From Deltaproteobacteria bacterium (GTDB lineage: Bacteria > Myxococcota_A > Polyangia > HGW-17 > JAJRWW01), in the NCBI GenBank assembly GCA_029938605.1, contig JAOZUO010000003.1, positions 26,592 to 90,591 of the forward strand: a stretch of 64,000 nucleotides of DNA, in the 5' to 3' direction. The notes beneath the pieces were generated by a model that was not told the DNA's origin, did not search any database, and saw only the letters and a list, made by a program, of their open reading frames with translations. Positions 11,063-49,780 of the stretch are shown here, one piece after another; the first letter of the stretch is position 1, and every line of letters starts with the position of its first letter. A program made the position numbers and the translations under genes.

Positions 11063-11940
11063 TTAGCCGATGGTCCTTCGGCCTGATCGTCTTCGCTGGG
11101 CTGGTACTAGCCGACGGTGGCTGCTCCAAGAGTCGGGCGGACGATTTCTCGAAGTTCAAGCCGTCAGAGTCCCTCCAGTCCCCGGGCGCCACTCCGCGTA
11201 CGCAGCTACGCTATCGCCCCCCCGCGGGCCAGGACGTGACCTACCAGCTCATCGTGAACCGTCAGTGCCAAGCCCTCGGCCTCCAGGCGAAGATGCGGCT
11301 GCGGGTGGCCTTGAAGGTGGACACCCTGAGCAGCGGTGGAGGCTCCTTTGTGCTGCGCTTGATCAGCCTACAGCGACTGCAACCCCTTCCCCCCGGCGGG
11401 CTGCCTGAGCTGGGACCCGCCTACGTACTGCTCCAGGGCCGAATCGGACCTCGGGGACGATTGACCGAAATTCAGGACGGCGACAGGTTGCCCACACCGG
11501 TGAACCTCGCCCTCGTGTTGCCGCTGCTGCTGCCCCGTTTGCCCGAGTCCTCCGTGGGCATCGGCGCCACCTGGCGCACGTCGGCTAAGCAGCGCTGGAA
11601 GCGCGTCCATTCCGCCGACGCGCTCACCAGCCAGCCGGGCTTCAACGGCTCCACGGAGGTGCTGCTGCACAGCGCCTACAAGCTCACCGCGCTGCAAAAC
11701 GCCAACCAACCCGTGCTCCAGGGCGACCTCAGTTTCAAGCTCCGCAGCCGCACCCGCGCCCTGAGCCACGCTACCCACCATGGAGGTCAAGGCAAAGCCA
11801 CGGCGCGCTACGTTCTGGACCCCACCACCTCTCTCCCCGTCCACGCCAAGGTCACCCTCCAAGGCACGTACAAGCTACACGCCAACGACAAAACCGCCCC
11901 CATCAAAGAGACCATCGAGCTAACCTTCAAACAGGACTGA
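10984..11940 (+). CDS. lipoprotein, paralog 2. The start is uncertain; a TTG inside the repeat element is the first in-frame start.
   Basis: Same frame as track ORF 10849-11940. Has a hydrophobic leader SFGLIVFAGLVLADGGC and TQLRYRPPAGQ resembling paralog 1. No ATG or GTG lies between the repeat and the leader. Confidence 0.45.
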   Translation: MIPSNEGRSQRGWIGGLGDLVIPGRALSRWSFGLIVFAGLVLADGGCSKSRADDFSKFKPSESLQSPGATPRTQLRYRPPAGQDVTYQLIVNRQCQALGLQAKMRLRVALKVDTLSSGGGSFVLRLISLQRLQPLPPGGLPELGPAYVLLQGRIGPRGRLTEIQDGDRLPTPVNLALVLPLLLPRLPESSVGIGATWRTSAKQRWKRVHSADALTSQPGFNGSTEVLLHSAYKLTALQNANQPVLQGDLSFKLRSRTRALSHATHHGGQGKATARYVLDPTTSLPVHAKVTLQGTYKLHANDKTAPIKETIELTFKQD

Positions 11941-11941
11941 G

Positions 11942-13300
11942 CTAGGGTTTCGGCAGGACCCGGGCGACCAGATCGTACTCGGCGCTCTGCTCCACTTCGG
12001 CGCGGACCAGGCGGCCGGGGCGGGGATCTTCCAGATCGGCGAGGTGCACCAGGCCGTCCACCTCGGGGGCCTGTCCCGCGTGGCGGCCGGCGGCCAGCAG
12101 GTCGGTCTCGGGGGACGGCCCGTCTACCAAAACGTCCAGGGTCGCGCCCACGAGTCTAGAGAGCCGCTCGCCGGAAATCTGCTGCTGCTGCGTGAGTAGC
12201 CGCTGTTGACGGGCGAGGGCAACCTCGGAGGGTGGAGCCTCCAGCGCGAAGGCGGGGGTAGACTCCTCGGGGGAGTAGGCGAAGACGCCCACGTGATCCA
12301 ACTGGGCCTGGGCGCAAAAGTCCACGAGGGACGCAAAGGCCGCCTCGTCCTCGCCCGGGTGCCCCACCAGCAAGGTAGTGCGCAAAAAGATATTGTCCAC
12401 GGCGCCACGGAGACGGTCCATGAGACGCCTCACATCGTCGCCTCGATACCCCCGTCGCATGATCCGAAGCACTTTGTCATCCACGTGCTGCACGGGTACG
12501 TCCAGATAGGGCACCACGGGGAGCCCCTCGGCCAGGACCCCGATGAGGGCGTCATCGGCCTCGCTGGGATAGGCGTACAGGAGACGGATCCAGTCCAGCC
12601 CATCCACCCTGCGAAGGTCCCGTAGGAGCCCCGCCAACCCCGGACGCGGCGACAGGTCCCGCCCATAGGCCGTGAGATCCTGAGCCACCAGGTTCACCTC
12701 ACGAACACCGCCTGCAACCAACTGCCGCACCTCGGTGACGATGGACGCCATCGGGCGACTTTGCTGCGACCCACGGATGCCCGGCACGGCGCAAAAGGCG
12801 CACTGGCGGTCGCACCCTTCGGACACCTTCACGTAGGCGGTGTGCGGACCCAGGGAGGGGTTCCGCTCGTAGGTGTGATCGTACAGGAAGGACCGGCCCG
12901 GATCAGCGCGTAGGCGCCCCTGGCCCCCCATGAGGTCCACGACCTCAGCCAGGTTCGCAGTGCCGATGAGCTTGTCGGCCTCGGGCAGCTCCGCGGCCAG
13001 GTCCGCGCCGTAGCGCTGCACCATACAGCCGGCCACCACCAGGGTCTCGCACCTCCCCGTGCGCTTGAGCTCGGCGGCCTCCAGCACGGCGTCCACGGAC
13101 TCGGTCCGCGCCGCCTCGATGAAGCCGCAGGTGTTGACCAGCACCACCTCGGCCTCCTCGGGCTCAGCCACCGGACGGTACCCCGCCGTACGAAGCAGGC
13201 CCAGGAGCACCTCGGAATCCACCCGGTTCTTGGCGCACCCCAGGGAGACGATGTAAATGGTCTTGGACGGGTCGGCGGTCTTGGAGGGGTCAGCGGTCAT
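11942..13300 (-). CDS. rimO: ribosomal protein S12 methylthiotransferase RimO (radical SAM MTTase)
   Basis: MTTase N-domain IYIVSLGCAKNRVDSE...VNTCGFI, radical SAM CDRQCAFC, C-terminal TRAM domain. Confidence 0.75.
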   Translation of the reverse strand: MTADPSKTADPSKTIYIVSLGCAKNRVDSEVLLGLLRTAGYRPVAEPEEAEVVLVNTCGFIEAARTESVDAVLEAAELKRTGRCETLVVAGCMVQRYGADLAAELPEADKLIGTANLAEVVDLMGGQGRLRADPGRSFLYDHTYERNPSLGPHTAYVKVSEGCDRQCAFCAVPGIRGSQQSRPMASIVTEVRQLVAGGVREVNLVAQDLTAYGRDLSPRPGLAGLLRDLRRVDGLDWIRLLYAYPSEADDALIGVLAEGLPVVPYLDVPVQHVDDKVLRIMRRGYRGDDVRRLMDRLRGAVDNIFLRTTLLVGHPGEDEAAFASLVDFCAQAQLDHVGVFAYSPEESTPAFALEAPPSEVALARQQRLLTQQQQISGERLSRLVGATLDVLVDGPSPETDLLAAGRHAGQAPEVDGLVHLADLEDPRPGRLVRAEVEQSAEYDLVARVLPKP

Positions 13301-14127
13301 CAGTCGTCAGACTTCTTACCCTTGGCCGGGATCTTAGTCGAGCTCTCGGTCGGGCTCGGACTCGGGCTCGGGCTCGAGCTCGGGCTCGAGCGCCGAGCCT
13401 CGAGGCGCCCGAGGCGCTTGCGCACCGACAGGGCCAACAGCACCACTCCCAGGGTGGCTCCCAAGCCGAGCAGGAGCCCCAGCAGGCCGAGCAACCGAGC
13501 GAGGCTGTCCATCTTGAAGGACCGCTTGAGTTTGACGAGATCCCGCTGGCGCACCGGGCTGTCCCGCTCGATGACCGCGGTGACGCTGCGACCCGCCATG
13601 GCGTCCATGGTAGGGGTCGGGCCGGACGTCATGCCGGGCGTCATCCCCGGTCCCGGTGTCATGCCCGGGGTCATGGCCGTGACCGCTCCGGGCGGACCCA
13701 GCTCACAGGTAGGCCGGGCGGTGATGGCCTTGCCCCGCACCACGCGGAAAGCCAGAATGCGAGCCTTCTGAAAGTCCGAGGGGCAAAAGACCACGTCGGT
13801 CTTGGTGACATTCACCATGCGCTTGAAAGTCTTCACCGGGGCGCCGATGGCCCGAGCGCGGTACATGTACCGCTTGAGGGTGGGGTTGTCGTCCCGGGCA
13901 AACATCAGCCGCTCCACCCCGGGGGGCGGAGTCGCGTGAACAAGGCGGGGAATGCCACAGCCGGGGATGGCGTCCAGCTTCTGGGGCTTACCCCACTTAC
14001 AGACCACCTTCTGCCTGGGCTGCACCACCTGCGCCATCGCCCGGCCACCGGGAAGGGCCGAGACCAGACCCAGGACCAAGCCGGGGACCAAGCCAATCCA
14101 AAGTTGCCCGCGAATCGAACGCAGCAT
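13300..14127 (-). CDS. hypothetical secreted/membrane-anchored protein
   Basis: N-terminal signal peptide, PGMT repeats, C-terminal TM helix and an SPSPSP tail. Confidence 0.45.
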   Translation of the reverse strand: MLRSIRGQLWIGLVPGLVLGLVSALPGGRAMAQVVQPRQKVVCKWGKPQKLDAIPGCGIPRLVHATPPPGVERLMFARDDNPTLKRYMYRARAIGAPVKTFKRMVNVTKTDVVFCPSDFQKARILAFRVVRGKAITARPTCELGPPGAVTAMTPGMTPGPGMTPGMTSGPTPTMDAMAGRSVTAVIERDSPVRQRDLVKLKRSFKMDSLARLLGLLGLLLGLGATLGVVLLALSVRKRLGRLEARRSSPSSSPSPSPSPTESSTKIPAKGKKSDD

Positions 14128-14285: not shown

Positions 14286-15644
14286 CTAGGAACTGGGTTC
14301 GGCGGCGCTCACGGGCACAACGGCCGAAGCAGAGGCAGAAGCCGAGACCGGGGCCAGGGCCGAGGTCGAGCGATACCGATCGCCATGCGAAGCCGCTCCC
14401 AGGTCGCGCGCGCCGGAGGTTGGCCGCCCGGCACGACGCTGGCGCTGATAAAAGTACTGCGCCACGAACGCCATCAACGCCAGGGCGCTGCACACCAGCA
14501 GCACCGGGCGCATGGCCCCCGCGGTGGGCGCGTTGCCAGCAGCCCCGGTGCCGGTGAGCTTGAAGATGAGACTCAGCAGTGGCGCCACCGCGAGCAGCAC
14601 CAACCGCTTGGCCGCGCTCTCGGCCGACAGCACCGTGGCGCGCACGCCGGAATCGGACATCTCCTCGTTGATCAGGGTCTTGACCACCGGCGAGTACACC
14701 CCGGTGACCACGTAGTGACTGACCATGAGCCCCACCACCATGAGCGGCCCAAGCAGGCCCATGAACAGGTAACAGACCACCAGCACGGCCGGCAGCGCCC
14801 ACAGGATGGGCTCCTGCCAACGCTCCCAGTTGGCCCGCCCCAGACGCAGGGCCGCCGCGGCGCCCACGAAGTTGAGCCCAGCGAAGGCCAGCCCGATTCC
14901 CAGGAAATTGAACCCCTGATTCTTGAGCACGGGCTGGAAGAGCGTGCCGCTCAGGATGACCAGGGTAAACAGCAGGGCCGAGTAGACGAGCAACCAACAC
15001 AGGGCCGGGCTCCGGCGAATGGTGTCGAGCCCCTGGCGCATGCCCATCAGCAGCCCCGGCCCCTGGGGTTGGGTGGCCTCACCGCGAACGCGTCCGCGGG
15101 TGGCCGGGAAGAAGAAGGTCACCCCGAAGGCACCGGCACAGGTGACGGCGGTCACCAGGAAAGTGGCGTCAGGACTGCGCACGAAGGCCAGCATTCCCCC
15201 CGCCGCGGCGGCGACGCCAAGGCCCACATACTTCGCCGCGTTGGCGACGGCCTCCCGACGCAGGTACTCTTTGGCCCGGCCGGCGGCTTTGAGTTGATCG
15301 TACAGATAGGCCGAGTCCGCGCCCGAAGTGAGCGTCAAGCCAGCGGCGAAGAGAACCTCGCAAAGAGCCAGCGCGGCGAAACCCGGAGCCACGTAGTACC
15401 CCACCGAGGCCACGGCCATGAGCAAGGAGCCCAGCCGCATGGATCTCCTTCGACCCAGGCGATCCGCCCAGGCACCCGTGGGCACCTCCAGGGTGAAAGC
15501 CGCCGCGGTGAAGATCGTCTGCAACAGCAAGATCTCGGCCATGGACAGGCCCCGGGCCAGGAACACAAAGACGAACACAGCCTTGTGCAGGTGTGCCGTA
15601 CACAGAGCCCGGTAGAGGTTATAAAGCCAGAGAGTCCGCGCCAT
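14286..15644 (-). CDS. MFS transporter
   Basis: ~12 predicted TM helices. MFS motif-like GAWADRLGRRRSM after TM2. Confidence 0.7.
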   Translation of the reverse strand: MARTLWLYNLYRALCTAHLHKAVFVFVFLARGLSMAEILLLQTIFTAAAFTLEVPTGAWADRLGRRRSMRLGSLLMAVASVGYYVAPGFAALALCEVLFAAGLTLTSGADSAYLYDQLKAAGRAKEYLRREAVANAAKYVGLGVAAAAGGMLAFVRSPDATFLVTAVTCAGAFGVTFFFPATRGRVRGEATQPQGPGLLMGMRQGLDTIRRSPALCWLLVYSALLFTLVILSGTLFQPVLKNQGFNFLGIGLAFAGLNFVGAAAALRLGRANWERWQEPILWALPAVLVVCYLFMGLLGPLMVVGLMVSHYVVTGVYSPVVKTLINEEMSDSGVRATVLSAESAAKRLVLLAVAPLLSLIFKLTGTGAAGNAPTAGAMRPVLLVCSALALMAFVAQYFYQRQRRAGRPTSGARDLGAASHGDRYRSTSALAPVSASASASAVVPVSAAEPSS

Positions 15645-15646
15645 GA

Positions 15647-16969
15647 TTACCGCGCCTCCGCTCTAGCTTGGGCCGTCAGGATCACGATGGCCGCCGCGGC
15701 CGTCAGCCGGGCGTTCTCACTGTCCGACGTCAGGTCGGGCGCCATCTTGGCCACCAGGGTTACGTCTCCGTAGGCACGGAGGGCCTGGGCCGCCTCCTCC
15801 CGCAGGGCCGTATGTTCCAAGGCCCGGACCAGGGCCGGGCGCGCCTCGGGAGCACCCAACTTCTGCAGGGCCAAGGCCACCCCCATGTGCATACCCGGCT
15901 CTTTCATGCGCGCCTTGAGCACAGCGAGCCCTATGCGGTCTCCCTTCATACCCAGGGCCACAGCAGCTCGGAGGCGATCGTACGGCGCGCGAGATTTTTG
16001 TAAAACCTCGCGCAGGTAGACCTGCCCCTTCTGATCCCCTAAGCGCACCAGCGCCTCGTAGGAGGTCATACGGTGCTGCCGGAGCCGAGCCAGCTGCCTG
16101 ATAACCCGCATCCCGGCCGAGTCGCCGCAACGAGCCAAGGCAAAGGCCGACGCCCACTGGACCGGTCTGCGGCGGGACACGAGGTCCTTTTTGAGCGCCG
16201 CGTTTCCCTCGGTGTGACCCAGGCGGGCGAGGGCCTCCGCCGCTCTTTGTCGGTTGGGCCACTTGTTGGATGCCAGAGCCTTACGCAAGACATCGAGGGC
16301 CCCGGCGTGCCCTTGCCCAGCGAGCACCCGGGCCGCCGTACGCCAATATCGCCCTGTGGAGTTGGCGAGGAATCCCTCCAAAATGGTCCAGGAACGCTTC
16401 TTGAGGGTCATGAGGCTCGGCCGGCGGCGGGTCCGGGGCGGCTCCACCACCTCCGGTGCCATCTCCCTACCGGCAGGCGCGACGCCGGAATTCACGGGCG
16501 GAGGCGACGAATTCAGGCTGCTCAAAGTGGCCGAAAGCGATGCCCGGTCAGTGGACACCCCGCCCGCAAAAGAGAGGATCAGAACCCCCACGATCACAAG
16601 CACCAGGGAGCACCCTCCCACCATTGTCGACAAGATCACTCGCCGCCGTCGGGACTCCGCCGGCGCGGGTGTCTCCACCGCCAGAGCCGAGACCTGCGGA
16701 GGTCCGGCGGGATCGGCAGCCGCGCCCGGCAGGGCCCGAGGTCGGGCGACGACCGCCGCCGAGGACTCCTCCTCGACGCGCGTACCCGATCCATCGGTGT
16801 CGGGTCGCAGAGCGGAACCAGACGAATCCTGGGACGCGAGCCCCTCGAGCACCCCCTCCCGGCAGGCCTCCGAACAGCACATCACCACACGATCATCCAC
16901 CACGAGGGGCGCATCCCCAAGCAGCGGATGCACCTCGCCGTGGCAACCGGGACAAGAGACCATGGTCAT
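15647..16969 (-). CDS. HEAT-repeat protein with an N-terminal Cys-rich zinc-ribbon-like segment and one TM helix
   Basis: N-terminal CPGCHGE...CCSEAC, then a TM helix (VGGCSLVLVIVGVLILSFAGG). The C-terminal half consists of PBS-lyase/HEAT-like repeats (LARLGHTEG..., LARCGDSAG..., LGMKGDRIG...). Confidence 0.55.
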   Translation of the reverse strand: MTMVSCPGCHGEVHPLLGDAPLVVDDRVVMCCSEACREGVLEGLASQDSSGSALRPDTDGSGTRVEEESSAAVVARPRALPGAAADPAGPPQVSALAVETPAPAESRRRRVILSTMVGGCSLVLVIVGVLILSFAGGVSTDRASLSATLSSLNSSPPPVNSGVAPAGREMAPEVVEPPRTRRRPSLMTLKKRSWTILEGFLANSTGRYWRTAARVLAGQGHAGALDVLRKALASNKWPNRQRAAEALARLGHTEGNAALKKDLVSRRRPVQWASAFALARCGDSAGMRVIRQLARLRQHRMTSYEALVRLGDQKGQVYLREVLQKSRAPYDRLRAAVALGMKGDRIGLAVLKARMKEPGMHMGVALALQKLGAPEARPALVRALEHTALREEAAQALRAYGDVTLVAKMAPDLTSDSENARLTAAAAIVILTAQARAEAR

Positions 16970-18039
16970 GGAAACACCATGGTTCTCTCCCAGCCGTACC
17001 GGGCGATGATCCAGTTGATGTGCTGGACGGCGTAGTTCCGTCGGGAAATGATCATGCGCAGCTCGCGCTCGGACAGCAGCGCCATGGGGGCGCCCGCCTT
17101 CTGGGCCATGCCCTGCTTGAGCCGCTTGTAGGTCAGCGCCTTGAGGTTTCTGAAAAGCTTCCGCGAAAAACGCTGCACGCGCTGCAGGCCCGTGCGTGCG
17201 TTCCTGCCACCCGTCGGTGTCGGGAAGAAGGAGTAGGTGTTGTCCATGAAATACAAGAACTTCGTGTCCGGCGTCCCCATGGTGTTAAACCCGGAGAAAC
17301 GGTCGGGGTTGTTGATCAGGAAATCGTACAGCAGCATGACCGACAGCTGCGCCGTAACCTCGGCGTACCGGGGCGGCAGCCGCTTGTAGGCCTTGAGCCA
17401 CTGGTGCCAGCGCTTGCGCGCTTTCCATCGGTCGATGGGGATGTATCGGATCTTCGGGATCCACCAAGACACCTCGCCCACCAGCCTGCCGCCCTTGCGA
17501 AACCTCGCCTCCTTCTTGAAACGGAAAAAGAACCGCCTCTCCCGGCGATCGATCTTGGCATACAGATCCCGCCAGGTGAGCACGCGCCAGGTGGCCGGCG
17601 GCACCCGACTCAACCCCAGGAGCCGATTGAGGCGGTAGGCGGCGATCTCCTTGCGGGGCACGGTCTGGGGATGGATCTGCTCGGGCTTGAAGGCCGCGCT
17701 GCTCCCGTCCGCCAGACGCAGCCGCAGCGACAGGCTGGATCCACCGCGGTTGAAGGTGATGCGCTTGATGGGCTGCCTTTGCATCCGCCGAAGCAGCACG
17801 TCGTCCGAGATCCCATTCCAGTAGCCCGGACGATCCCGTCGTAGGGTCTCACTGGGGATCTCGGCCACGGACGGCAGGGGCTTTTGGTAGAGCGCAGCCA
17901 GGAACACCTCCCGCTCCGTCGCGCGGGATCCAGCCGGTGCGGATCGGGCCCAGGACACTGTGGACGCCAAAATACCGAACGGAAGACAGAGGACAACCGC
18001 TGCAAGCACACGAAGCATTTGGCGTTTTCTTCTCATCAA
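16966..18039 (-). CDS. secreted protein with a Fam20/four-jointed-like (secretory kinase-like) domain
   Basis: Signal peptide. DFLINNPDRF and MDNTYSF resemble the Fam20C catalytic segment (DxLIxNxDRH ... DN). Lys/Arg-rich. Confidence 0.4.
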   Translation of the reverse strand: MMRRKRQMLRVLAAVVLCLPFGILASTVSWARSAPAGSRATEREVFLAALYQKPLPSVAEIPSETLRRDRPGYWNGISDDVLLRRMQRQPIKRITFNRGGSSLSLRLRLADGSSAAFKPEQIHPQTVPRKEIAAYRLNRLLGLSRVPPATWRVLTWRDLYAKIDRRERRFFFRFKKEARFRKGGRLVGEVSWWIPKIRYIPIDRWKARKRWHQWLKAYKRLPPRYAEVTAQLSVMLLYDFLINNPDRFSGFNTMGTPDTKFLYFMDNTYSFFPTPTGGRNARTGLQRVQRFSRKLFRNLKALTYKRLKQGMAQKAGAPMALLSERELRMIISRRNYAVQHINWIIARYGWERTMVFP

Positions 18040-18325
18040 AACGTCACCATCTTACCATCGATCGTTTGCCATTCGATCCGAGATCCCGTCGCGGCGGATC
18101 CGCTGTCTAGCTGGATCTCAAACAACCTGTGCCCACATTACCACACACTGGCATACATGTCCTACTTTTCGTGCATATTCCCCGGCTTCGTCTCCGACGG
18201 GGCCGGATCATCGGGGAGATCTTCCATAAATTTCGCTCCTCCATCTACTGTGCCTCTACCCAGATTACCCGCTGGTCCGCGGCGATGTTCCCATCCGGAG
18301 TGGAATCCGGACTTGCCGGACTTGA

Positions 18326-19420
18326 ATGGATTATATGGTAGAGTCGTCGAAGCCAACGGGAGAATCCATGTACCCCAGACCTGCACTACGCCAACCGCCG
18401 TTGCTCGTTTTCCTGCTGGTGATCCTGGTGACCACGGCGAGCTGCAACCTGACCCGCTACGCCATTCGGAAAAGCGGACCGGTCCTGGGAAATACCGTGG
18501 CGGTGCTCCAGTCCTATAAGGATCCGGAGATGGCCCGCCAGGCCACGCCGGCCCTGCTCGTGGTGCTCGAGGGGTTGCTCGCCTCGGACCCTGAGAATGC
18601 CACGTTGCTCCGGTTGCTCTGCCGAGGCCTCTATGAATACACCTTCGGTTTTCTGCAGTCCGACTACGAGCGGCTGCGAGAAAGCGATCCTGAGGGCGCC
18701 GAACGCATGCGGCGCCGGGCCCGCGGACAGTACGTAAAGGTGTACGAGCTGGGGCTGCGCCTGCTACGAACCCACGGCGTTCGATTCACCCTCCAAAAGA
18801 CGAAGAAGGAGGAGCTGACGCGGCAGATCGCCGGGCTGGACAAGCGGGCGGTCCCGGCGCTGACCTGGACCGCACTGGGCGCCGGCAGCGCGCTGCTGCT
18901 AGGCATCGATCAGCCCTGGTTGCTGCAGATGATCGGTAAGATCCCGCTGCTGCTCGAGCGCGCCGTGGCCCTGGATCCGAGCTACGCCAACGGTCTCCCC
19001 GTGGGCGGTCTCGCCCTATACTATGGGAGGGATTTGATGACGGGTGGGAGCGCCATCAAATCCCAGCGATACTTCCAGCAGGCCATCAGGATCTCGCGCC
19101 GACGCCACCTGCTGTATCTCGTGCTCTACGCCCGCTACTGGGCGTGGCAGTTCCAGAGCGTCGAGGTGGAACGGGTGGGGCGCGGCCCGTCCGCTCGCAA
19201 GGTCCCCCTTCGCCCCAAAAACAAGCGCGCACTCTTCGTTGCGCTCCTAGAGGAGGTGCTCCGCTTCCGGCTGGAGGACGCGCCCGAATTGCGGCTCTCG
19301 AACACCCTCGCCAAGCACATGGCCAAGCAGCTTATGCGGCGTAAGGACGATTTCCTCGGAATCCAAAGCCCACGAAGCCCACGAAGCCCGCACCACGCGG
19401 CACGCGGAGACCGACCATGA
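18326..19420 (+). CDS. TatT-like TPR lipoprotein (TRAP-transporter-associated)
   Basis: Lipoprotein signal (LLVFLLVILVTTASC) and an all-helical TPR-like fold. Overlaps (ATGA) the downstream DctP-family gene. Confidence 0.55.
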   Translation: MDYMVESSKPTGESMYPRPALRQPPLLVFLLVILVTTASCNLTRYAIRKSGPVLGNTVAVLQSYKDPEMARQATPALLVVLEGLLASDPENATLLRLLCRGLYEYTFGFLQSDYERLRESDPEGAERMRRRARGQYVKVYELGLRLLRTHGVRFTLQKTKKEELTRQIAGLDKRAVPALTWTALGAGSALLLGIDQPWLLQMIGKIPLLLERAVALDPSYANGLPVGGLALYYGRDLMTGGSAIKSQRYFQQAIRISRRRHLLYLVLYARYWAWQFQSVEVERVGRGPSARKVPLRPKNKRALFVALLEEVLRFRLEDAPELRLSNTLAKHMAKQLMRRKDDFLGIQSPRSPRSPHHAARGDRP

Positions 19421-20430
19421 AACGGCTGCTCATAACGATCACCACAGCGACGCTACTTTTCGGCGGCTCCGCCGACGGTCGGGCCGCCCCAGTCACCCTG
19501 AAGATCGCCACGGTAATGCCCCGGGGCGGTCCCTGGGCCAACGCCATGACCCGCATGGCCATCGCGGTAAAAAAGAAAACCAAGGGCAAGGTGGTGTTCA
19601 AGATCTACTTCGGCGCCGTGGCGGGCACCGAGCGGCGCGCCCTCAGCCGCATGAAGGCCAATCAGATCCAGGGACTGGCAGCGGCCTCGGCGGCCCTGTC
19701 CTCCATCGACAGCTCCATCCGGGTGCTGGAGCTGCCCATGCTCTATCGCTCCTACAAAGAGTTCCGCTTCGTGATCAAGTCCATGGAACCCATCTTCAGG
19801 GAGCGCTTCAAAAAACGCGGCTACCGCCTGCTGGCCATGGCGAGCGTGGGCTGGATCTACCTCTACTCCAAAAACCCCATCCGCTCACTTCCTGACATCC
19901 GGCGCTGTAAAATCTGGCGCTGGAAGCACGATCCCATGGTCAATGCGATATTCAAGGTCATGGGCATGCGCACCCAGACGGCACCGGTTACCGACGTGCT
20001 GGCGTCCTTGCAGGCGGGCACCATCGACACCGTCTACGGCATGCCGCACACCACCCAGGCCCTCCAGTGGCACACCAGCGTCAAGTACGCCCTCGACTTC
20101 CGGATCAACATGGCCATCGGATCGGTGCTGATACGCAACGACGCCTTCGCCAAACTCACCGTCGCCCAGCAGAAGGTTGTGCAGGACCAGGGCCGGATCA
20201 TGCAGCGCTTTTTGAACCGAACCTCGGCGTCCATCAACGCCAAGGCCCTACGCTCCATGCAACGCAGCGGCCTGAAGCTACTCAAGCCGTCCGCCTCTTT
20301 CTTCAAGCAGCTCCGGGGCCTCAGGATCAAGCTCCGGAAGAAGCTACGCAACACCATGTACAAGCCGGCCGACCTTAAAAAAATCAAGGCCCTGCTCACC
20401 CTGTGCCGCGTCACCTCCTGCACCATCTGA
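19417..20430 (+). CDS. TRAP transporter solute-binding protein, DctP family
   Basis: Signal peptide plus DctP-family conservation (KIATVMPRGGPWANAM..., WKHDPMVNAIFKVMGMRTQTAPVTDVLASLQAGTIDTV). Confidence 0.7.
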   Translation: MKRLLITITTATLLFGGSADGRAAPVTLKIATVMPRGGPWANAMTRMAIAVKKKTKGKVVFKIYFGAVAGTERRALSRMKANQIQGLAAASAALSSIDSSIRVLELPMLYRSYKEFRFVIKSMEPIFRERFKKRGYRLLAMASVGWIYLYSKNPIRSLPDIRRCKIWRWKHDPMVNAIFKVMGMRTQTAPVTDVLASLQAGTIDTVYGMPHTTQALQWHTSVKYALDFRINMAIGSVLIRNDAFAKLTVAQQKVVQDQGRIMQRFLNRTSASINAKALRSMQRSGLKLLKPSASFFKQLRGLRIKLRKKLRNTMYKPADLKKIKALLTLCRVTSCTI

Positions 20431-42747: not shown

Positions 42748-44961
42748 CTACATCATCGGGTCCATGGTGATCGCCGGGTGACCCTTCTCGGTCAGCCACT
42801 CGAGGATCTCCATCTCATCGGTGGACACGGTCTCGTCGCAGATGAGCTCGGCGAAGTTCTCCGACAGGCCCTGCTTGACGGCCTGGGCGTTGATCCTGTC
42901 CTTGAGCTCTTCTTTGAGGTTCTTGGGCAGCCAGACCAGCCGCCCGATGCCGCCTTCGGCCCTGATGAACTTGCCGGACACCACATACAGCTTGGAGTGG
43001 CCCACAAAGCCCGGGGTCACCGCGCCGCCGCCCACGGTGCCGGCCAGGGTGGTGAACTTCATACCCGAGGGGGTCATGCCGCCGTAGTCGCGATCCACGG
43101 TCATGATGCCGTTACACATGGGCATGATGGCGCTGATGGCCTCGAAGCAGCCGCAGGAAGTCATGGGCTCTTCCATGATGGAATAAGCGTTGTACAGCTC
43201 CACCGTGCCGCGAGAGGCCTGGCGCACGAATTCGTTGACACCCTCCCACTGGCCGCGCTTCTCGTCGATGACGCGCCCCTTCTCGATGGGCTGGTTCGGC
43301 CCCGTGGGGGTGATTTCGAAAGAGGCCTTGCAGTCCAACCAGGAGTAGGCACCACAGAGGCCCGTCCGCTCAGGGGTCACCACGCACACGTGGCTCGGAG
43401 CGAAGGACTGGCAGAGAGTACAGCTGTAGTAGGTCTCCTCGTCCTCGTCGACCATGCCCTCCACACGGGCGTCACGCACGGCGTAGGATGCCCGCGCCAA
43501 CTTGAGGATCTTCTTGGCGTCCTCTTCCTTGGTGAAGATGGTCACCTTCACCTTGTCGAGAATGGCGCCGAACTCGCTGTGGTACTTGGCCCAGATGATC
43601 TCGCCAATATGCTTGAAGCGGAAGCCCTTCTCGTAGGCGGTCTTGGAGATACGGAACCAGGCGATGTCGCGCTGGCCAATGTGCATGCTGCCCTGGGCGA
43701 AGTTCACCAGGTGGTGGATCTGCCGCTCCAGGATGGGCTCGAAGTCGGCCTGGAACTCGCGGCCCGCCACTTCGACCTTAATGCCCAGGGAGCACTTGGA
43801 GTTCTCGCCGAGCTCATCGAGATCGGGACCAATGAGCTGAATGTCGTGGTCCTCGATGGCGTCCATCTCGGCCGAGGTGGTCCACTCCACGGCGAAGGTG
43901 CCGCCACGACCGCCACCGCCCTCGAAGTAGATGTCCGGCCCACGCACGCGCTCGCCCTCGAAGGCGGCACCGTAGGCTACGGGAACCTCTACCTTGGACA
44001 CGTTGACCTTCAGACCACGGACCTCCACCGAACGCTGAACGATTTCGTCGTGGGGCACATTGGAGACCACATGCTCGTAGGTACACACGCCCGTGGGCAG
44101 GATCTGCGGAATGGGTGTGTCGGCGATAACCGGGAAGCCGTAGTTCACGCACATGAGGCCGTTGGCGTACCACTGGTCGGTGACGTGACCCAGGGTCATG
44201 GCGAAGGCGAAAACGCGGTCCTTGTTGTAGATGAGGACCCTGCGGTAGTCGCCGGGCTCGATGCCGCCGAAGGTCAGGGCCGCACGGGTGGCGAACCCCG
44301 CGGCGAACACCGCCGCGGAGACGTCCGGGCCGAAGGAGACCAGCCGGGTGCCCCAGCCGATCTCCACACCCGCCTCTACGAGCTGCTCGGAGAAGCGCAC
44401 GCCGTTGTGCTCGCCTGCCATGAAGACGTACAGGTTCTTCTGCTGCAGCTCCAAGGCGATCTGAACGGCGATCTCCGTGGTGGGCGCGGCACCTAGGATA
44501 GCGGCAAAGCCCGGGGCCGTGCCGTCGACGAACTCCACGCCGCGTTTCCGCAGGATCACGTCGTCGGCGGCGCCAAGCCAGATGTTATCGTCAGTGACAT
44601 CCTCGCCCCGGACATAGAAGTCGGGGAACTCGAGGTACCTCATGCACTCTTCCATCTCCTGGGCGAACAAGGCCACTGCGCCCGCGTCCAGGGCTGGGCC
44701 CAGGTAGGGCAGATGCACATGCTCCTTGACCAGGGGCGGCAGGAGCATCCGACAGCGGTCGAAGACGGGACCCATGTCTTCCAGCGTCTCGATCTTGTGA
44801 CCGAGCAGGCCGTAGATGCTGGGCAGGTAGTAGCCGGTGTTGGGGAACCCAACCTCGGTCTTACCGCCGTGCGTATCCATCATCTCGGTATATTTTTTTC
44901 GCACGCGCTCCACGATTGCGTGGGCGCCACGGATTCCAGCGGATGCGATGATCTTAGACAT
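42748..44961 (-). CDS. acsB: acetyl-CoA synthase catalytic subunit (AcsB/CdhC)
   Basis: 737 aa with global AcsB architecture. C-terminal A-cluster region with the CGAYSWLDCK...CTLCQSFAPSHVC motifs. Confidence 0.85.
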   Translation of the reverse strand: MSKIIASAGIRGAHAIVERVRKKYTEMMDTHGGKTEVGFPNTGYYLPSIYGLLGHKIETLEDMGPVFDRCRMLLPPLVKEHVHLPYLGPALDAGAVALFAQEMEECMRYLEFPDFYVRGEDVTDDNIWLGAADDVILRKRGVEFVDGTAPGFAAILGAAPTTEIAVQIALELQQKNLYVFMAGEHNGVRFSEQLVEAGVEIGWGTRLVSFGPDVSAAVFAAGFATRAALTFGGIEPGDYRRVLIYNKDRVFAFAMTLGHVTDQWYANGLMCVNYGFPVIADTPIPQILPTGVCTYEHVVSNVPHDEIVQRSVEVRGLKVNVSKVEVPVAYGAAFEGERVRGPDIYFEGGGGRGGTFAVEWTTSAEMDAIEDHDIQLIGPDLDELGENSKCSLGIKVEVAGREFQADFEPILERQIHHLVNFAQGSMHIGQRDIAWFRISKTAYEKGFRFKHIGEIIWAKYHSEFGAILDKVKVTIFTKEEDAKKILKLARASYAVRDARVEGMVDEDEETYYSCTLCQSFAPSHVCVVTPERTGLCGAYSWLDCKASFEITPTGPNQPIEKGRVIDEKRGQWEGVNEFVRQASRGTVELYNAYSIMEEPMTSCGCFEAISAIMPMCNGIMTVDRDYGGMTPSGMKFTTLAGTVGGGAVTPGFVGHSKLYVVSGKFIRAEGGIGRLVWLPKNLKEELKDRINAQAVKQGLSENFAELICDETVSTDEMEILEWLTEKGHPAITMDPMM

Positions 44962-45008
44962 TGCTTCTCCTCAATTGGGCGTTCGCTTCGCAGCTAGTAG
45001 ACCGGGGC

Positions 45009-46964
45009 CTAGGCCTCGATGTCGGCCTCCGCACGGCGCATCTCCATGTCCATGAGGACACGTTCCTTCTTCTTGTCGATGCCGAGCGCTTTTCGTTTCT
45101 CGTCGATATGGGCGATCATGAGCTGCGCGGCCTTGACGGGGTCCGGCTCAAAGTCCCACTTGCCGCCGACCTTCTCGGCAATGCCGTCGAACAGGTATTC
45201 GGTGAGCTTCTTGGCGCCCAGGGTCGGGAAGGAGACTCCGAACACGGTATAGACGCCCGAGGCCACGAAGTAATGGCCGATGGAGATGGCCTTCTCGGAC
45301 ATCCACTCCGGCGCGGCACCCGCGGCGGGGAGGTCCGAGATGTCGTCTCCCAGGCCCCCCTCCTTGACCACCGCGGCGGCGGCCATGAGGATACGGGAGT
45401 TGTCCACGCAGGAGCCCATGTGGAGCACCGGTGGGATGCCCACGGTCTCACAGACCTCGCGCAGGCCGGGACCGGCAAACTCCAGACCCTTCACCGGATC
45501 CATCAGCCCCTCCTTGGCACAAGCGATGGCGCTGCACCCGGTCTGAAGCACAATCACATCGTTTTTGACCAGCTCCTTGACCATTTCGATGTGATAGAGG
45601 TCATGCGGCACCTTGGCGTTGTTACAGCCCACCACGCCGGCGATGCCGCGGATCTTGCCGTTGATGATATTGTCGTTGAGCGGCCGATACGAGGCGCGGA
45701 AGGAACCCCCCAGCAGATAGTTGATCGTCTCGTGGGAGAAGCCGGCGACCAGATCGATGGTATCGAAGACCGTCTTCTTGGCGTCCTTCTGCCGGTTCTG
45801 GTAGTTGTCGCAAGCGACCTTGACGATCTCCTTGGCCGACTCGAGCGCACGGTCCTCGTGGAACTCGATGTGCTGGGCGTCGGGCATCCTGGCGATACGG
45901 CTCGTGGTGAGGATTTTGGTGTGGTAGTGCTTGGCCACCTGGGGCAGAGACTGCATAATGCACTGGATGTCCACCACCATGGCCTCCACCAGGCCGGTCA
46001 CCATGGCAACCTCCTGCTGGAGGAAATCGCCGGCAACCGGAATGCCGTGCCGCATCAGGATCTCGTTGGCCGTGCAGCACATGCCGCCCAGGTTGATGCC
46101 GCCGGTGGCACCCTTGGAGGCGGCGTACTCCTTCATCTCGTCAGTCATGGACACGGCCACGATCATCTCGGAGAGCAGCGGCTCGTGCCCATGCAAGATG
46201 ATGTTCACCTGGTCCTCCTCCAAGAACCCCAGGTTGACCTTACTGACCACTGGAACCGGAGTGCCGAACAGGATGTCCTGAAGCTCCGTGGCCAGCATGG
46301 ATCCACCCCAGCCATCGCCCAACGCGGCGCGGCTGCCGTGGTCGATCAGGTGATGGTACTCCTGGTCCACGCCCATGTGCGTCCGGTGCATGATCTCCAC
46401 GATCTCGCGGTCGATGCCCCGGGGCATGATGCCCTGCTCCCGCCACAGCTGCTGGCGTTTGAGCGGCGCGCGCTGGCACATGACGAGCTCACCCTCCTGC
46501 TGGCCCCACTGAGCCAGGGCGAGCTTGCCCACTTCCAGCGCGATGTCATTGATGGCGCGATCCCCAATTTCGACCTCGAAGTCCATGGCCAAGGCGAGGA
46601 GCTTCTGCTCGTCTTGGATGGAGTAGCCCGGAGCCTTGCCCTCGGCCACCTCGATGAAGGTCTCGGCCACGGCCCGACCGTGGTCGGAGTGTGCCGCGGC
46701 GCCGGCGGCGATCATCCGGATAAAGTTCCGCGCGGCGATGGTGTCGGAATCAGCGCCACACACGCCCCGCTGGGGCCCGTTGCCGTAGGGATCGGTCTGA
46801 CACGGTCCCATGGCACAGATCCGACAGCACACGCCCAGATTCCCAAAGCCACACTGCGGACTCTGCTGTTCCAAACGGTCCCAACAGAGCTCGACACTTT
46901 CTTCACATGCCTGGCCGATAAGCTGCGCGGTAACAGGATCGCCACTCTTCATTTTCTCGTTCAT
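45009..46964 (-). CDS. cooS: anaerobic carbon-monoxide dehydrogenase catalytic subunit (CooS/AcsA)
   Basis: B/D-cluster motif CGFGNLGVCCRICAMGPCQ. 651 aa. Confidence 0.9.
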   Translation of the reverse strand: MNEKMKSGDPVTAQLIGQACEESVELCWDRLEQQSPQCGFGNLGVCCRICAMGPCQTDPYGNGPQRGVCGADSDTIAARNFIRMIAAGAAAHSDHGRAVAETFIEVAEGKAPGYSIQDEQKLLALAMDFEVEIGDRAINDIALEVGKLALAQWGQQEGELVMCQRAPLKRQQLWREQGIMPRGIDREIVEIMHRTHMGVDQEYHHLIDHGSRAALGDGWGGSMLATELQDILFGTPVPVVSKVNLGFLEEDQVNIILHGHEPLLSEMIVAVSMTDEMKEYAASKGATGGINLGGMCCTANEILMRHGIPVAGDFLQQEVAMVTGLVEAMVVDIQCIMQSLPQVAKHYHTKILTTSRIARMPDAQHIEFHEDRALESAKEIVKVACDNYQNRQKDAKKTVFDTIDLVAGFSHETINYLLGGSFRASYRPLNDNIINGKIRGIAGVVGCNNAKVPHDLYHIEMVKELVKNDVIVLQTGCSAIACAKEGLMDPVKGLEFAGPGLREVCETVGIPPVLHMGSCVDNSRILMAAAAVVKEGGLGDDISDLPAAGAAPEWMSEKAISIGHYFVASGVYTVFGVSFPTLGAKKLTEYLFDGIAEKVGGKWDFEPDPVKAAQLMIAHIDEKRKALGIDKKKERVLMDMEMRRAEADIEA

Positions 46965-47037
46965 TCGAGACTCCTTGCTCTATCTTCGCCTGTCCCGGAA
47001 GCACCGCCGAAGCGGCCCCGGGGCGCCGGGCGTCAAG

Positions 47038-47802
47038 TTACATGTGTCCTTCTGCCATGGCCTGCTTGGCGTAGAACTCCCGCCGGCAGGTGGGGCAGAC
47101 CGACCGCACATCCTCGTCCATATTGACGGTCTTCTTCAGGTGCGCCAGGTGCTTCTCCGTGGCCACGGCCTTGCCGCAGATGCGGCAGCGCACCAGCTTG
47201 TGTATGGCGCGCCAACGGGGCAGCTCCCGCGTATCAGCCGTGTCGATGACCTCAATGCACTGCGTGGGACAGACCGAGGCGCAGGAGGCACATCCGATGC
47301 ACTCCTTGGACAGGTCGTCAAAGGGCGTGCCCACGTCCTTTTTGTCCCCGCGGCCGATGAAGCCCAGGGCCTCGACGCCCATGACGTCCTTGCACACCTG
47401 AATACACAGGCCGCACAGGATGCACTCCTCACCGCTCACCGGGTAGGCCTGGGCATCGACGCCGTACTCGGCGGCAAGCTCTCGGACCCGCTTGGCCTTG
47501 GGCGCCCGCGCGATGAGCAGCTCGAGTACACCCTTGCGATTCTCTCGGATGTTCTCGGAGTCGGTGACCACCTCGATGCCCGGCAGCACCGGGTAGTTGC
47601 AGGAGGTGGTCAGCTTAGTCTTCTTGCGGCCGTGGGACTCAGCAGTGACCTCCACCAGGCACAACCGGCAGGCCCCATAGGCCTCCACTGCGGGGTGGTA
47701 GCACAGGTGCGGGATATCGATCCCGTTGTCCAGAGCGGTCTGTAGCAGGCTCGCGCCTTGCTCCGCCTGGATGGTTTTTCCGTCGATGACGATGTCAATC
47801 AT
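47038..47802 (-). CDS. iron-sulfur protein with a 2Fe-2S ferredoxin-like N-domain plus 4Fe-4S clusters (NuoG/HndD N-terminal-fragment-like)
   Basis: MIDIVIDGKTIQAEQGASLLQTALDNGIDIPHLCYHP...CRLCLVEV plus CILCGLCIQVC and CIGCASCASVCP. Start set at the ATG 47802, which avoids a 359-bp overlap of the track ORF with the upstream gene. Confidence 0.6.
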   Translation of the reverse strand: MIDIVIDGKTIQAEQGASLLQTALDNGIDIPHLCYHPAVEAYGACRLCLVEVTAESHGRKKTKLTTSCNYPVLPGIEVVTDSENIRENRKGVLELLIARAPKAKRVRELAAEYGVDAQAYPVSGEECILCGLCIQVCKDVMGVEALGFIGRGDKKDVGTPFDDLSKECIGCASCASVCPTQCIEVIDTADTRELPRWRAIHKLVRCRICGKAVATEKHLAHLKKTVNMDEDVRSVCPTCRREFYAKQAMAEGHM

Positions 47803-47842
47803 CTGTAGATGCTCCCTGTTAAATAAATCGACAACCGTGGCC

Positions 47843-49780
47843 CTAACCCTGGGTCCCTGTCCGGATGTCGATCGCATCGAACTTGCAGGACTGATAGCAG
47901 ATCCTGCACTTCGTACATTTGTCTTGGTCGATCTTGTAGGTGTCGCCCTTCTTTTTCTCGCCGCTGATGGCATCGTAGGGGCAGTTGAGTGCACAAAGAT
48001 TGCAGCCGTTGCACTCGGCAGTGATGTGGAAGGAGATGAGCGGCTTGCACACGCGCCCGATACACTCGCCCCGTTCGATGTGTCCCTCGTACTCTTCACG
48101 GTAGTACTTGAGCGTCGACAGGACCGGGTTGGCCGCCGTCTGTCCGAGGGCGCAGAGCGACCCATCCATAACCACCTTGGCCAACGACTCGAGCTTCTCA
48201 ATGTGCTTCTGGGTTCCGCGCCCTTCGCAGATGTCGTTGGTGAGCTCCCACATGCGCTTGAGTCCCTCGCGGCAGGTGGTGCACTTGCCGCAGGACTCGT
48301 CGCGGAGGAAGTTCAAGAAGTACCGGGCAAAGTCCACCATGCAGGTGTCTTCGTCCATGACGATCATGCCGCCCGAGCCCATCATGGACCCGGCCTTGGT
48401 CAGCTCGTCAAAGTCCACGGGCTGGTCCAGGAACTTCTCGGGCAGACAGCCGCCGGAGGGACCGCCGGTCTGCACGCCCTTGAACTTCTTACCGTCGCGA
48501 ATGCCCCCGCCGATGTCGAAGATGATCTGGCGCAGGGTCGCGCCCATGGGCACCTCCACCAGGCCGGTGTTGTTGACCTTGCCCACCAGGGAGAAGATCT
48601 TGGTGCCCTTGGAGCCGCCCCAGGGGTTCTTGGACACGTCGCCGGTGCCGATTCCGGTGAACCAGTCGACACCCTTGTTGATGATAAGAGGCACGTTGGC
48701 CCAGGTCTCGACGTTGTTCAGGTTCGAAGGCTGATCGTACAGTCCCTGCTCCACCGTATGGATGTGCTTGGCCCGGGGCTCGCCCACATACCCCTCGAGG
48801 GAGGCCATGAGCGCCGTGGACTCGCCGCACACAAAAGCACCACCGCCCCGCACGACCTTGATGTCGAAGCTGAAGTCCGAGCCCAGAATGGACTTGCCCA
48901 GCAGCCCCATGGCCCGCGCCTGCTCCAAGGCGGTAGTCAGGTTGCTCACCGCCAGGGGATACTCGTTACGAACGTAGACGTAGCCCTGGCTTGAGCCGAT
49001 GGCGAAGGCACCAATGATCATGCCCTCGATGATGAGGTGCGGATTGCCCTCGAGCAGCGACCGGTCCATGTAGGCGCCGGGATCGCCCTCATCAGCGTTG
49101 CAAATGACGTAACGCTGCTCGCCCGGGGCGTCCTTGCAGGTGCGCCACTTCACGCCGGTGGGGAATCCACCACCGCCACGACCCCGCAGGCCGCTTTTCG
49201 TGATCTGGTCGATGACCTCATCGCCCTTCATCTCGCCAAGCACCTTGACCAGGGCGCTGTAACCGTCGCGAGCGATGTAGTCGTCGATCTTGCGGGGATC
49301 GAGCATCCGCCCGCCATGCATCAGCTCCTGCTGCTGGTGCTTGTAGAAAGGAATGTCGTTCTCTTTGGTGCATTTCTTGCCGCTGACCGGATCTACGAAG
49401 AGCAGCTCTTCGATGACTTCGCCCTTGGCGAGGGTCTTGGCGACGATGTCCGCGGCGTTCTCCGACTTGACCTTCTGGTAGAGGATCTCCTCGGGGTAGA
49501 TGACCATGAGCGCACCGCGCTCACAGAAGCCGTGGCAACCCGTGGCCACGATCTCCACCTTCTCTTCCAGACCGGCCTTGCAGACCTCGTCGCGGAGGGC
49601 CTCGGCGAGGCTATCGCATTTATAGGCCTTGCAGCCGGTGCCAGTGCACACCGAGACAATCTTACGATCAGGGTTCTTGTCGCCCTGCAGCTTGGCGCGG
49701 TACTCGGCGAGATCTCCCCCGGAGTTCAGCAGCTTGAGCTTGGAAAGGTCGATGGACGTATGTTCCGGAGAGCAGCTCAT
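47843..49780 (-). CDS. NuoF/HndC-like NAD(P)H-binding flavoprotein subunit with a fused N-terminal thioredoxin-like 2Fe-2S domain and C-terminal 2x4Fe-4S
   Basis: GRGGGGFPTGVKW (FMN/NADH site), SCGKCTTCREG (N3 cluster), C-terminal CNGCNLCALNCP...CTKCRICYQSC. Confidence 0.8.
   Translation of the reverse strand: MSCSPEHTSIDLSKLKLLNSGGDLAEYRAKLQGDKNPDRKIVSVCTGTGCKAYKCDSLAEALRDEVCKAGLEEKVEIVATGCHGFCERGALMVIYPEEILYQKVKSENAADIVAKTLAKGEVIEELLFVDPVSGKKCTKENDIPFYKHQQQELMHGGRMLDPRKIDDYIARDGYSALVKVLGEMKGDEVIDQITKSGLRGRGGGGFPTGVKWRTCKDAPGEQRYVICNADEGDPGAYMDRSLLEGNPHLIIEGMIIGAFAIGSSQGYVYVRNEYPLAVSNLTTALEQARAMGLLGKSILGSDFSFDIKVVRGGGAFVCGESTALMASLEGYVGEPRAKHIHTVEQGLYDQPSNLNNVETWANVPLIINKGVDWFTGIGTGDVSKNPWGGSKGTKIFSLVGKVNNTGLVEVPMGATLRQIIFDIGGGIRDGKKFKGVQTGGPSGGCLPEKFLDQPVDFDELTKAGSMMGSGGMIVMDEDTCMVDFARYFLNFLRDESCGKCTTCREGLKRMWELTNDICEGRGTQKHIEKLESLAKVVMDGSLCALGQTAANPVLSTLKYYREEYEGHIERGECIGRVCKPLISFHITAECNGCNLCALNCPYDAISGEKKKGDTYKIDQDKCTKCRICYQSCKFDAIDIRTGTQG

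Follow-up and report, generated by a model that had tools for sequence, protein, structure and literature searches.

A predicted exported Fam20-family kinase homolog encoded in a Myxococcota contig

The window analysed here is a stretch of 64,000 nucleotides from a Deltaproteobacteria bacterium (GTDB lineage Myxococcota_A; assembly GCA_029938605.1, contig JAOZUO010000003.1, forward-strand positions 26,592 to 90,591), and its subject is a minus-strand gene whose product, called the query below, carries the motif pair DFLINNPDRF and MDNTYSF. By comparing the query and its bacterial relatives with known structures and protein families, we place the product in the Fam20 family of secreted kinases. 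As judged from its sequence, it is probably (at roughly 0.6) an exported and catalytically competent Fam20-family phosphotransferase.

Fold assignment, active site and export signal

Compared singly with the PDB sequences, the query retrieved six Fam20 chains and nothing else, the best being human FAM20C, with an E-value of 1.2e-4 over two collinear stretches. When 60 diverse homologs were combined into a profile (alignment A1, used both against the PDB and for AlphaFold2), matches were obtained to human FAM20C (5yh3_C, E 7.5e-21), zebrafish Fam20C (5yh0_A, 2.5e-18), human FAM20A (5wrr_A, 5.3e-17), C. elegans Fam20 (4kqa_A, 1.4e-11) and Hydra Fam20B (5xom_A, 3.5e-10); the sole match outside Fam20 was noise, at E 0.55. 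The AlphaFold2 model on A1 has a mean predicted local distance difference test score of 89.1 and a predicted template modelling (TM) score of 0.80. When this model was compared with the PDB by Foldseek, the best 28 matches were all Fam20 structures (E 2e-15 to 2e-9, TM-score about 0.6), followed by the type II alpha phosphatidylinositol 4-kinase (PI4KII-alpha, E 5e-6), and CotH is not among the 50 matches listed. An earlier note on this DNA had proposed a Fam20/four-jointed-like kinase fold and had named Fam20C and CotH as the structures for comparison; the profile and Foldseek results bear out the fold and the likeness to Fam20C, whereas CotH did not appear among the matches listed. By its modelled structure, the protein is Fam20 proper and not a distant CotH-like or HipA-like cousin. 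CotH, the spore-coat kinase of Bacillus (5jda), and HipA are bacterial proteins of the same broad atypical-kinase fold group and have been cited as the nearest bacterial relatives of Fam20, though very distant ones (PMC12189002, PMC6829671). Four-jointed/Fjx1 and FAM198 have also been grouped with Fam20 in one secreted-kinase family (PMC6829671), and the Pfam model FAM198 (GASK1) is matched faintly by the N-lobes of query relatives, at E 0.03-0.16 and far below threshold. Separately, centromere protein S (4ne3) weakly matches both bacterial profiles over the C-terminal helices, at positions of about 275-343 (E 0.55 with A1 and 0.0067 with A2, the alignment of a divergent subgroup described below), which is probably a chance likeness of helical segments.

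The canonical phosphotransfer residues of Fam20 are present and in register. Conservation was counted in 230 full-length sequences, reaching down to 24% identity to the query, and the chain index of 4kqa was converted to C. elegans numbering by adding 59, a shift checked on Phe207-Tyr208-Phe209, Asp211, Glu213, Arg214, Glu218 and Arg390 (PMC5865150). In the N-lobe loop, Gly99 and Ser/Thr101 are each kept in 217 sequences. Lys118, the putative equivalent of the ATP-binding Lys, is Lys in 217 sequences and Arg in 11, and Glu131 at the position of the canonical alphaC Glu is Glu in 226 and Asp in the other 4. The catalytic segment is still more uniform (D239 in 230, N244 in 228, D246 in 228, R247 in 230, G250 in 227 and N252 in 226). 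The Asp of the DRH triad (Asp299 in Hydra) is the catalytic base of Fam20 (PMC5865150), a role that Asp246 would fill here, and Asn252 is a likely metal ligand. Asp266, which aligns with the Asp three residues ahead of C. elegans Arg390 and is kept in 229 sequences, would be the metal-binding Asp of DFG type. Thus the catalytic Lys, the alphaC Glu, the DRH-type Asp and the DN(G)-type Asp are each conserved in 94-100% of the sequences, and this near-invariance implies strong purifying selection on the active site.

These results agree closely with the earlier note, which had read the two motifs as counterparts of the DxLIxNxDRH segment and the downstream DN motif of Fam20C and Fjx1 and had singled out the invariant Lys, Glu and Asp positions for a check. 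DFLINNPDRF (residues 239-248) and MDNTYSF (residues 265-271) follow each other in the order that it had given, in an ORF (open reading frame) with exactly the bounds that it had given (Table 1), and both align in register with the Fam20 chains; the positions in question are the nearly invariant Lys118, Glu131, Asp246 and Asp266. Written in a relaxed form (D[FYLM][LIVM][ILVMT]xNxDR and then, 10-35 residues on, [LIVMFR]D[NH]..F), the motif pair has one match when the 64-kb window is translated in all six frames and none in 200 shuffled windows, and no second Fam20-like gene was found in the window.

The ORF finder began the gene at TTG 18039, and ATG 18036 is the very next codon. The ATG is probably the real start, because GGTGA stands 7 nucleotides upstream and because an ortholog of 86% identity has 356 residues in independent gene calls, with the N-terminus kept. 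The N-terminus reads MMRRKRQ-MLRVLAAVVLCLPFGILASTV-SWA and then RS, with a hydrophobic stretch of 18-19 residues in between; the hydrophobic segment (residues 11-29) is flanked by a net charge of +5 on its N side and +1 on its C side. A positive n-region, an h-region and small residues at -3 and -1 fit a Sec signal peptide cut after Ala31, so that the signal peptide mentioned in the earlier note can be recognized with its n-, h- and c-regions. In the AlphaFold2 model, residues 2-26 form a detached helix followed by a disordered stretch (28-39). Among the relatives of the main group, 86 of 116 carry an N-terminal hydrophobic segment and 30 do not, and many of the latter are short or lie on short contigs and may be truncated. 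A strict lipobox pattern is found in 21 of 49 sequences of the divergent subgroup, compared with 7 of 181 in the main group. All three types of N-terminus (signal-peptide-like, with a longer hydrophobic segment, or with a lipobox match) point to an extracytoplasmic site of action, as far as can be predicted from the N-termini, and such a site would parallel the lumenal or extracellular location of the animal Fam20 proteins.

Taken together, the following mechanism may be proposed. The product would be exported by the Sec system and cleaved near Ala31, leaving an enzyme of about 325 residues in the periplasm or released beyond it. A nucleotide triphosphate and a divalent metal would then be bound with the help of a Lys118-Glu131 ion pair and of Asn252 and Asp266 as metal ligands. 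With Asp246 acting as the base, the gamma-phosphate would pass to a hydroxyl group of an extracytoplasmic macromolecule of the envelope or the extracellular space. In this subclade, the HEAT-repeat protein encoded next to the kinase gene is a candidate scaffold, regulator or substrate.

Differences from animal Fam20 and competing explanations

Several observations weigh against an active, exported Fam20 kinase. Taken alone, the query matches the Pfam Fam20C model (PF06702) at E 0.14 and 12.2 bits, for a cut-off of 26.8. Every alignment with Fam20C contains a gap of about 13 residues, opposite PPDFFYFSDYERH of Fam20C, and the ion-pair Glu is lost with it. The specificity positions of Fam20B and Fam20C are not kept, the His of DRH being F/W/Y (position 248) and the DN+3 residue F/L/M/Y. 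The signal-anchored relatives show a weak charge bias across the hydrophobic segment, which makes their topology less certain. The periplasm is conventionally held to be devoid of adenosine triphosphate (ATP) (PMC11366764), and the phosphate donor is the main difficulty. Finally, in the literature searched on Fam20 in bacteria, no description of the bacterial family and no assay on it was found.

As for similarity, the query alone lies in the twilight zone, and NCBIfam returned nothing for it but a faint PI3/PI4-kinase-like match. In the wider family, 29 of the 60 members of A1 match the Fam20C model at E < 0.01, and half of the relatives tested singly (5 of 10) pass the curated cut-off, at 27.8-34.3 bits. 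The family therefore straddles the Pfam threshold, which accounts for the missing annotation: more than 628 homologs among 5.8 billion proteins searched are all unnamed or 'hypothetical', and a few carry a precomputed PF06702 match.

The deleted segment deserves closer attention. In Fam20C this loop, between Kbeta3 and Kalpha3, bears the FFYFSD 'Clash1' and dimer-interface motif together with the ion-pair residue Glu213, and the equivalent of this C. elegans Glu213 in Hydra Fam20 is Asp152 (PMC5865150). In Fam20A, a Gln in place of the ion-pair Glu helps to make the protein a pseudokinase (PMC5865150). The bacterial proteins resemble Fam20A, the pseudokinase activator of Fam20C (5wrr), in that the C-lobe matches well and the acidic residue is missing at the Fam20C ion-pair position; unlike in Fam20A, the position is lost by deletion of the loop and not by a Gln substitution, and every other catalytic residue is kept. 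It is conceivable that the query has a Fam20 fold without phosphotransfer and acts by binding a partner, such as the HEAT protein. The absent Glu213, whose loss contributes to the inactivity of Fam20A (PMC5865150), the high FAM20A profile score (5.3e-17) and the supposed scarcity of ATP outside the cytoplasm all favour such a pseudokinase or scaffold. On the other hand, the Lys, the alphaC Glu, the DRx Asp, the Asn and the DN Asp are retained in nearly all of the sequences, as expected of an active enzyme, and the canonical alphaC Glu131, judging from the alignment, could stand in for the missing ion-pair residue. An inactive protein is thus unlikely.

The bacterial domain is in other respects a reduced one. 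Compared with Fam20C, the Golgi casein kinase (human 5yh3, zebrafish 5yh0, C. elegans 4kqa), to which the bacterial protein has 17-21% identity, it lacks the Kbeta3-Kalpha3 loop, the CxxxC loop, all four disulfides and Arg390, and it comprises about 290 residues, compared with 350-390 in Fam20C. Fam20C is resident in the Golgi, whereas the bacterial proteins are predicted to be periplasmic or extracellular. Animal Fam20 proteins have four disulfides (PMC5865150). The only Cys of the query is residue 18, within the signal peptide, and the domains of its relatives contain a median of 1 Cys and a maximum of 3, with no conserved Cys column and hence none of the four disulfides.

In Fam20B, the glycosaminoglycan xylosylkinase, His301 of the DRH triad and Lys321 at DN+3 (Hydra numbering) belong to the Gal-Xyl pocket, and the His binds xylose (PMC5865150). 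Compared with Fam20B and Hydra Fam20 (5xom/5xoo), the bacterial proteins have F/W/Y for His301 (position 248) and F/L/M/Y for Lys321 (position 269), and the disulfides are absent. Fam20C, a protein Ser kinase (S-x-E), is defined by a D/N-F/H-F-Y-F-S/T-D loop, a C-D/S-Y-Y-C loop, an Arg at DN+3 and dimerisation (PMC5865150). The bacterial family has neither the FFYFSD loop nor the Cys pair, and at Tyr269, the residue of the query at the Arg390 (Fam20C)/Lys321 (Fam20B) specificity position, the 230 sequences show F, L, M or Y. Since the protein belongs to the Fam20 family as a whole and to neither of these subfamilies, the substrate is not readable from either paradigm. Our estimate is about 45% for Ser/Thr residues of proteins, about 35% for envelope or matrix glycans, about 10% for a lipid or small molecule and about 10% for non-kinase chemistry. 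It is also rather unlikely that the enzyme phosphorylates lipids or small molecules (for example, lipid head groups or lipid-linked sugars) at the periplasmic surface of the inner membrane, and not macromolecules; PI4KII-alpha (4pla/4hnd), the nearest structural match after Fam20, is a cytosolic, membrane-associated eukaryotic lipid kinase whose sequence match is not significant.

If the kinase were cytoplasmic and its N-terminal hydrophobic stretch an annotation artefact or an N-out anchor, the ATP-supply problem would vanish. The small charge difference in the signal-anchored relatives and the 30 of 116 relatives without the segment are compatible with this, as is the cytoplasmic nature of the product of rimO, the most conserved neighbour of the gene. 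In the query itself, however, the charge bias is clear (+5 versus +1) and is followed by an SWA/RS cleavage site; the lipobox in 21 of 49 divergent sequences would imply export; many of the relatives without a segment may be truncated; and the N-terminus is kept in independent gene calls. A cytoplasmic kinase is accordingly quite unlikely. For an exported, active enzyme, precedents for the use of ATP outside the cytoplasm are the periplasm-targeted, ATP-dependent Lig E and the reported nanomolar extracellular ATP and active ATP secretion (bioRxiv 10.64898/2026.03.22.713542). That the nucleotide is supplied by the transporter of the major facilitator superfamily (MFS) encoded next to the kinase is pure speculation.

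A further alternative is that the kinase fold is used for other nucleotide chemistry, such as AMPylation or nucleotidyl transfer. Atypical kinase-fold families with non-canonical chemistry are exemplified by SelO and SidJ, and the replacement of the DRH His by an aromatic residue and the missing Fam20C-type ion pair could be read in the same way. All canonical phosphotransfer residues are nevertheless in register with Fam20, and nothing points specifically to a flipped nucleotide, which makes this alternative improbable. If the protein should prove inactive or cytoplasmic, it would be merely an uncharacterised atypical kinase homolog.

Distribution and evolutionary position

The family is large. 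An exact look-up of the query protein in public assemblies gave no record. A HMMER search over 1.84 billion cluster representatives gave 413 matches at E <= 1e-30, 1,058 at <= 1e-10 and 2,529 at <= 1e-3, and relatives are encoded at 219 loci in GTDB contigs with one genome per species. The 80 loci listed of these 219 bear the labels Myxococcota, Myxococcales, Polyangia, Haliangium, Kofleriaceae, Polyangium or the old 'delta/proteobacterium'. A divergent second subgroup of about 50 representatives (proteins P0168-P0267, alignment A2) has 24-32% identity and the motif FDYLIGNWDRFSGGN...RDH[ND]xAF, and its named members are Myxococcota. Two of its proteins (P0255 and P0234) are among those that look derived from low-GC (guanine plus cytosine) organisms. 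A2 matches A1 at an hhalign E-value of 5.7e-75, which leaves no doubt that both belong to one family, and FAM20C at 2.8e-13. The idea that this subgroup, in view of its shared LIGNxDR and DH, might be nearer to animal Fam20 was rejected, as it scores 52.9 bits to FAM20C and the subgroup of the query 77.6. The two bacterial subgroups resemble each other far more closely than either resembles animal Fam20. There is thus no sign that the animal proteins nest among the bacterial ones, and neither direction of transfer is favoured.

Recent transfer from an animal or contamination of the assembly, an idea encouraged by papers in which Fam20 is surveyed in animals alone or called eukaryote- or Metazoa-specific (PMC5865150, PMC9758233), is effectively refuted by the low identity to animal Fam20, a GC content of the gene matching that of the surrounding DNA, its place in a bacterial operon whose genes overlap at their start and stop codons, the presence in at least 219 species genomes with conserved synteny, the two deep bacterial subgroups and the absence of the animal disulfides and insertions. 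The synteny speaks for a gene that has long resided in these bacteria and has been passed on mostly by vertical descent, and against a recent acquisition.

In the literature, the Fam20 survey of PMC5865150 is limited to 'annotated animal genomes', PMC9758233, within its data set, counts FAM20 with the 'eukaryotic- or Metazoa-specific' clusters, and the Fam20C-like bacterial kinase of PMC12189002 is CotH. The sole link to the bacterial clade that we found comes from a single passing sentence of a 2026 phylogenomic preprint (10.64898/2026.05.08.723234). There, Myxococcota are credited with up to five possible contributions to the endomembrane functions of eukaryotes, FAM20B being one of them, and the signal is said to be not always unequivocal. 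The bacterial family is thus discoverable, some members through Pfam, and uncharacterised. What appears to be new, as far as sequence comparison can tell, is a large prokaryotic Fam20 clade that is free of disulfides, lacks the loop, bears export signals, is syntenic across Myxococcota and is apparently catalytically intact.

A broader and considerably more tentative reading joins these points, namely that the Myxococcota family is a prokaryotic sister, or possibly the source by ancient horizontal gene transfer, of animal Fam20, that it keeps a minimal ancestral form predating the disulfides, the insertion loop and dimerisation, and that it works as an active kinase of the periplasm or cell surface. 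As a whole this is doubtful. Were it true, envelope or matrix components would be phosphorylated outside the cytoplasm, and the nucleotide would have to be supplied there, conceivably via the MFS transporter. In any case, the family is a test case for ATP-dependent phosphorylation in the Gram-negative periplasm or the extracellular matrix, which is unexpected if the periplasm is free of ATP. In addition, a minimal, disulfide-free and probably monomeric Fam20 core should be easy to produce in E. coli for studies of structure and mechanism, and the two subgroups with their conserved synteny form a data set on which the proposed Myxococcota link to eukaryotic FAM20B can be tested.

Gene neighbourhood and other genes of the window

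The kinase gene is the first of a co-oriented array on the minus strand, kinase-HEAT-MFS-p275-rimO, where p275 stands for a protein of 275 residues (Table 1). Between the genes there is no terminator-like site, and the hairpin beyond rimO is the only one of the array that falls outside an ORF on this strand. The identical array is present in two independent metagenome assemblies with their own gene calls, where the TRAP-transporter pair TAtT/DctP is also divergent upstream. Given this arrangement, the kinase is in this lineage probably co-expressed with an MFS transporter and with a periplasmic HEAT protein anchored in the membrane.

Table 1. Features of the window, in window coordinates, with the basis of each assignment.
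Feature	Coordinates	Strand	Details
Fam20-family kinase homolog gene	16966..18039	minus	ORF of 357 amino acids (aa) from TTG 18039, probably 356 aa from ATG 18036; stop TGA 16966-16968
Shine-Dalgarno-like GGTGA	18044..18048	minus	7 nucleotides (nt) 5' of ATG 18036; read from sequence
Predicted Sec signal peptide, residues 1-31	17947..18039	minus	Sequence and charge analysis
Fam20-like kinase domain, residues about 66-357	16969..17844	minus	
N-lobe loop TFNRGGSSLS, residues 95-104	17728..17757	minus	HMMER-aligned to KSGGTQLKL of FAM20C
Lys118	17686..17688	minus	AAFKP aligns with A[LV]FKP of Fam20; 4kqa chain 133 (192 in C. elegans numbering)
Glu131	17647..17649	minus	RKEIAAY aligns with AEIA[AT]F; Glu218 of C. 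elegans, canonical alphaC Glu, Glu91 of PKA
Catalytic segment DFLINNPDRFSGFN, residues 239-252	17284..17325	minus	Alignments and PMC5865150
MDNTYSF, residues 265-271	17227..17247	minus	Alignments and PMC5865150
HEAT-repeat gene, 440 aa	15647..16969	minus	ATG overlaps kinase stop (ATGA); HEAT_2 E 9.5e-16, AlphaRep-like PDB matches
MFS transporter gene	14286..15644	minus	2-nt spacer after HEAT stop; MFS_1 E 9.7e-20
275-aa protein (p275)	13300..14127	minus	158-nt gap after MFS gene; present in 7 of 80 loci
rimO (ribosomal protein S12 methylthiotransferase), last of array	11942..13300	minus	1-nt overlap; TIGR01125 457.9 bits, cut-off 356.95
Terminator-like hairpin	11896..11912	minus	Just past rimO; consensus scan, weak evidence
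TAtT and DctP (TRAP-transporter pair), then rhodanese-domain protein	18326-20430	plus, divergent	TAtT PF16811, E 5.6e-47; DctP NF037995, E 1.5e-74
TMEM260-like protein O-mannosyltransferase-domain protein, 810 aa	25689-28121	minus	PF11028, E 4.8e-14
CO dehydrogenase/acetyl-CoA synthase (CODH/ACS) cluster	42748-49780	minus	ACS/CODH beta (PF19436, E 5.8e-121), Prismane/CODH (E 9.8e-178), Nuo51-like flavin mononucleotide/iron-sulphur protein
Hanks-type Ser/Thr kinase, 809 aa	59186-61615	minus	Pkinase, E 3.3e-35

The HEAT protein has a Cys-rich N-terminus, one transmembrane helix (residues 116-134, flank charges +3 and 0) and C-terminal HEAT repeats that are predicted to be periplasmic. Its residues 1-40 (CPGCHGE...CCSEAC) look like a small zinc ribbon that would face the cytoplasm, and no family model of Pfam or NCBIfam matches this N-terminus. 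For the MFS transporter, no relatives were found in the PDB, and the weak matches to drug-efflux models give no clue to the cargo. The protein p275, which has no match in Pfam or NCBIfam, has a hydrophobic segment at its N-terminus, a region rich in Pro, Thr, Gly and Met, a transmembrane helix towards the C-terminus and a Ser/Pro-rich tail.

The neighbourhood was counted by targeted tblastn with the window's own neighbours, at those 65 of the 80 loci listed whose downstream sequence extends over 2.5 kb or more. Directly downstream of the kinase stands rimO at 31 loci, HEAT followed by MFS at 16, MFS first at 11 and none of these genes at 7, so that the template kinase-[HEAT]-[MFS]-[p275]-rimO fits 58 of the 65; MFS occurs downstream at 27 and rimO at 39. 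The adjacency of rimO to the kinase, with a median gap of about 61 bp, persists at kinase identities of about 40%, and a functional reason for it is not apparent. Since rimO is a cytoplasmic housekeeping gene, it is taken to mark a stable chromosomal position and is not regarded as a partner in function. An all-against-all BLAST clustering of ORFs of at least 90 aa from the 80 loci was discarded because low-complexity, high-GC ORFs fused into two giant components, and recurrent upstream neighbour clusters were rejected as shadow ORFs. The divergently transcribed genes of Table 1 keep their place beside the kinase in just the three closest of the 80 loci listed.

Farther away in the window, the CODH/ACS cluster contains genes of Wood-Ljungdahl type, which are unexpected given the Myxococcota-labelled relatives and suggest an anaerobic, uncultured lineage. 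The TMEM260-like protein, about 8 kb from the kinase gene, is the second protein of the window that resembles a eukaryotic secretory-pathway enzyme; a link between the two through phosphorylation of O-mannose glycans, by analogy with POMK, would be speculation. Finally, the Hanks-type Ser/Thr kinase is unrelated to the Fam20-like gene, and its presence fits the remark of the earlier note that the genome is rich in kinases.

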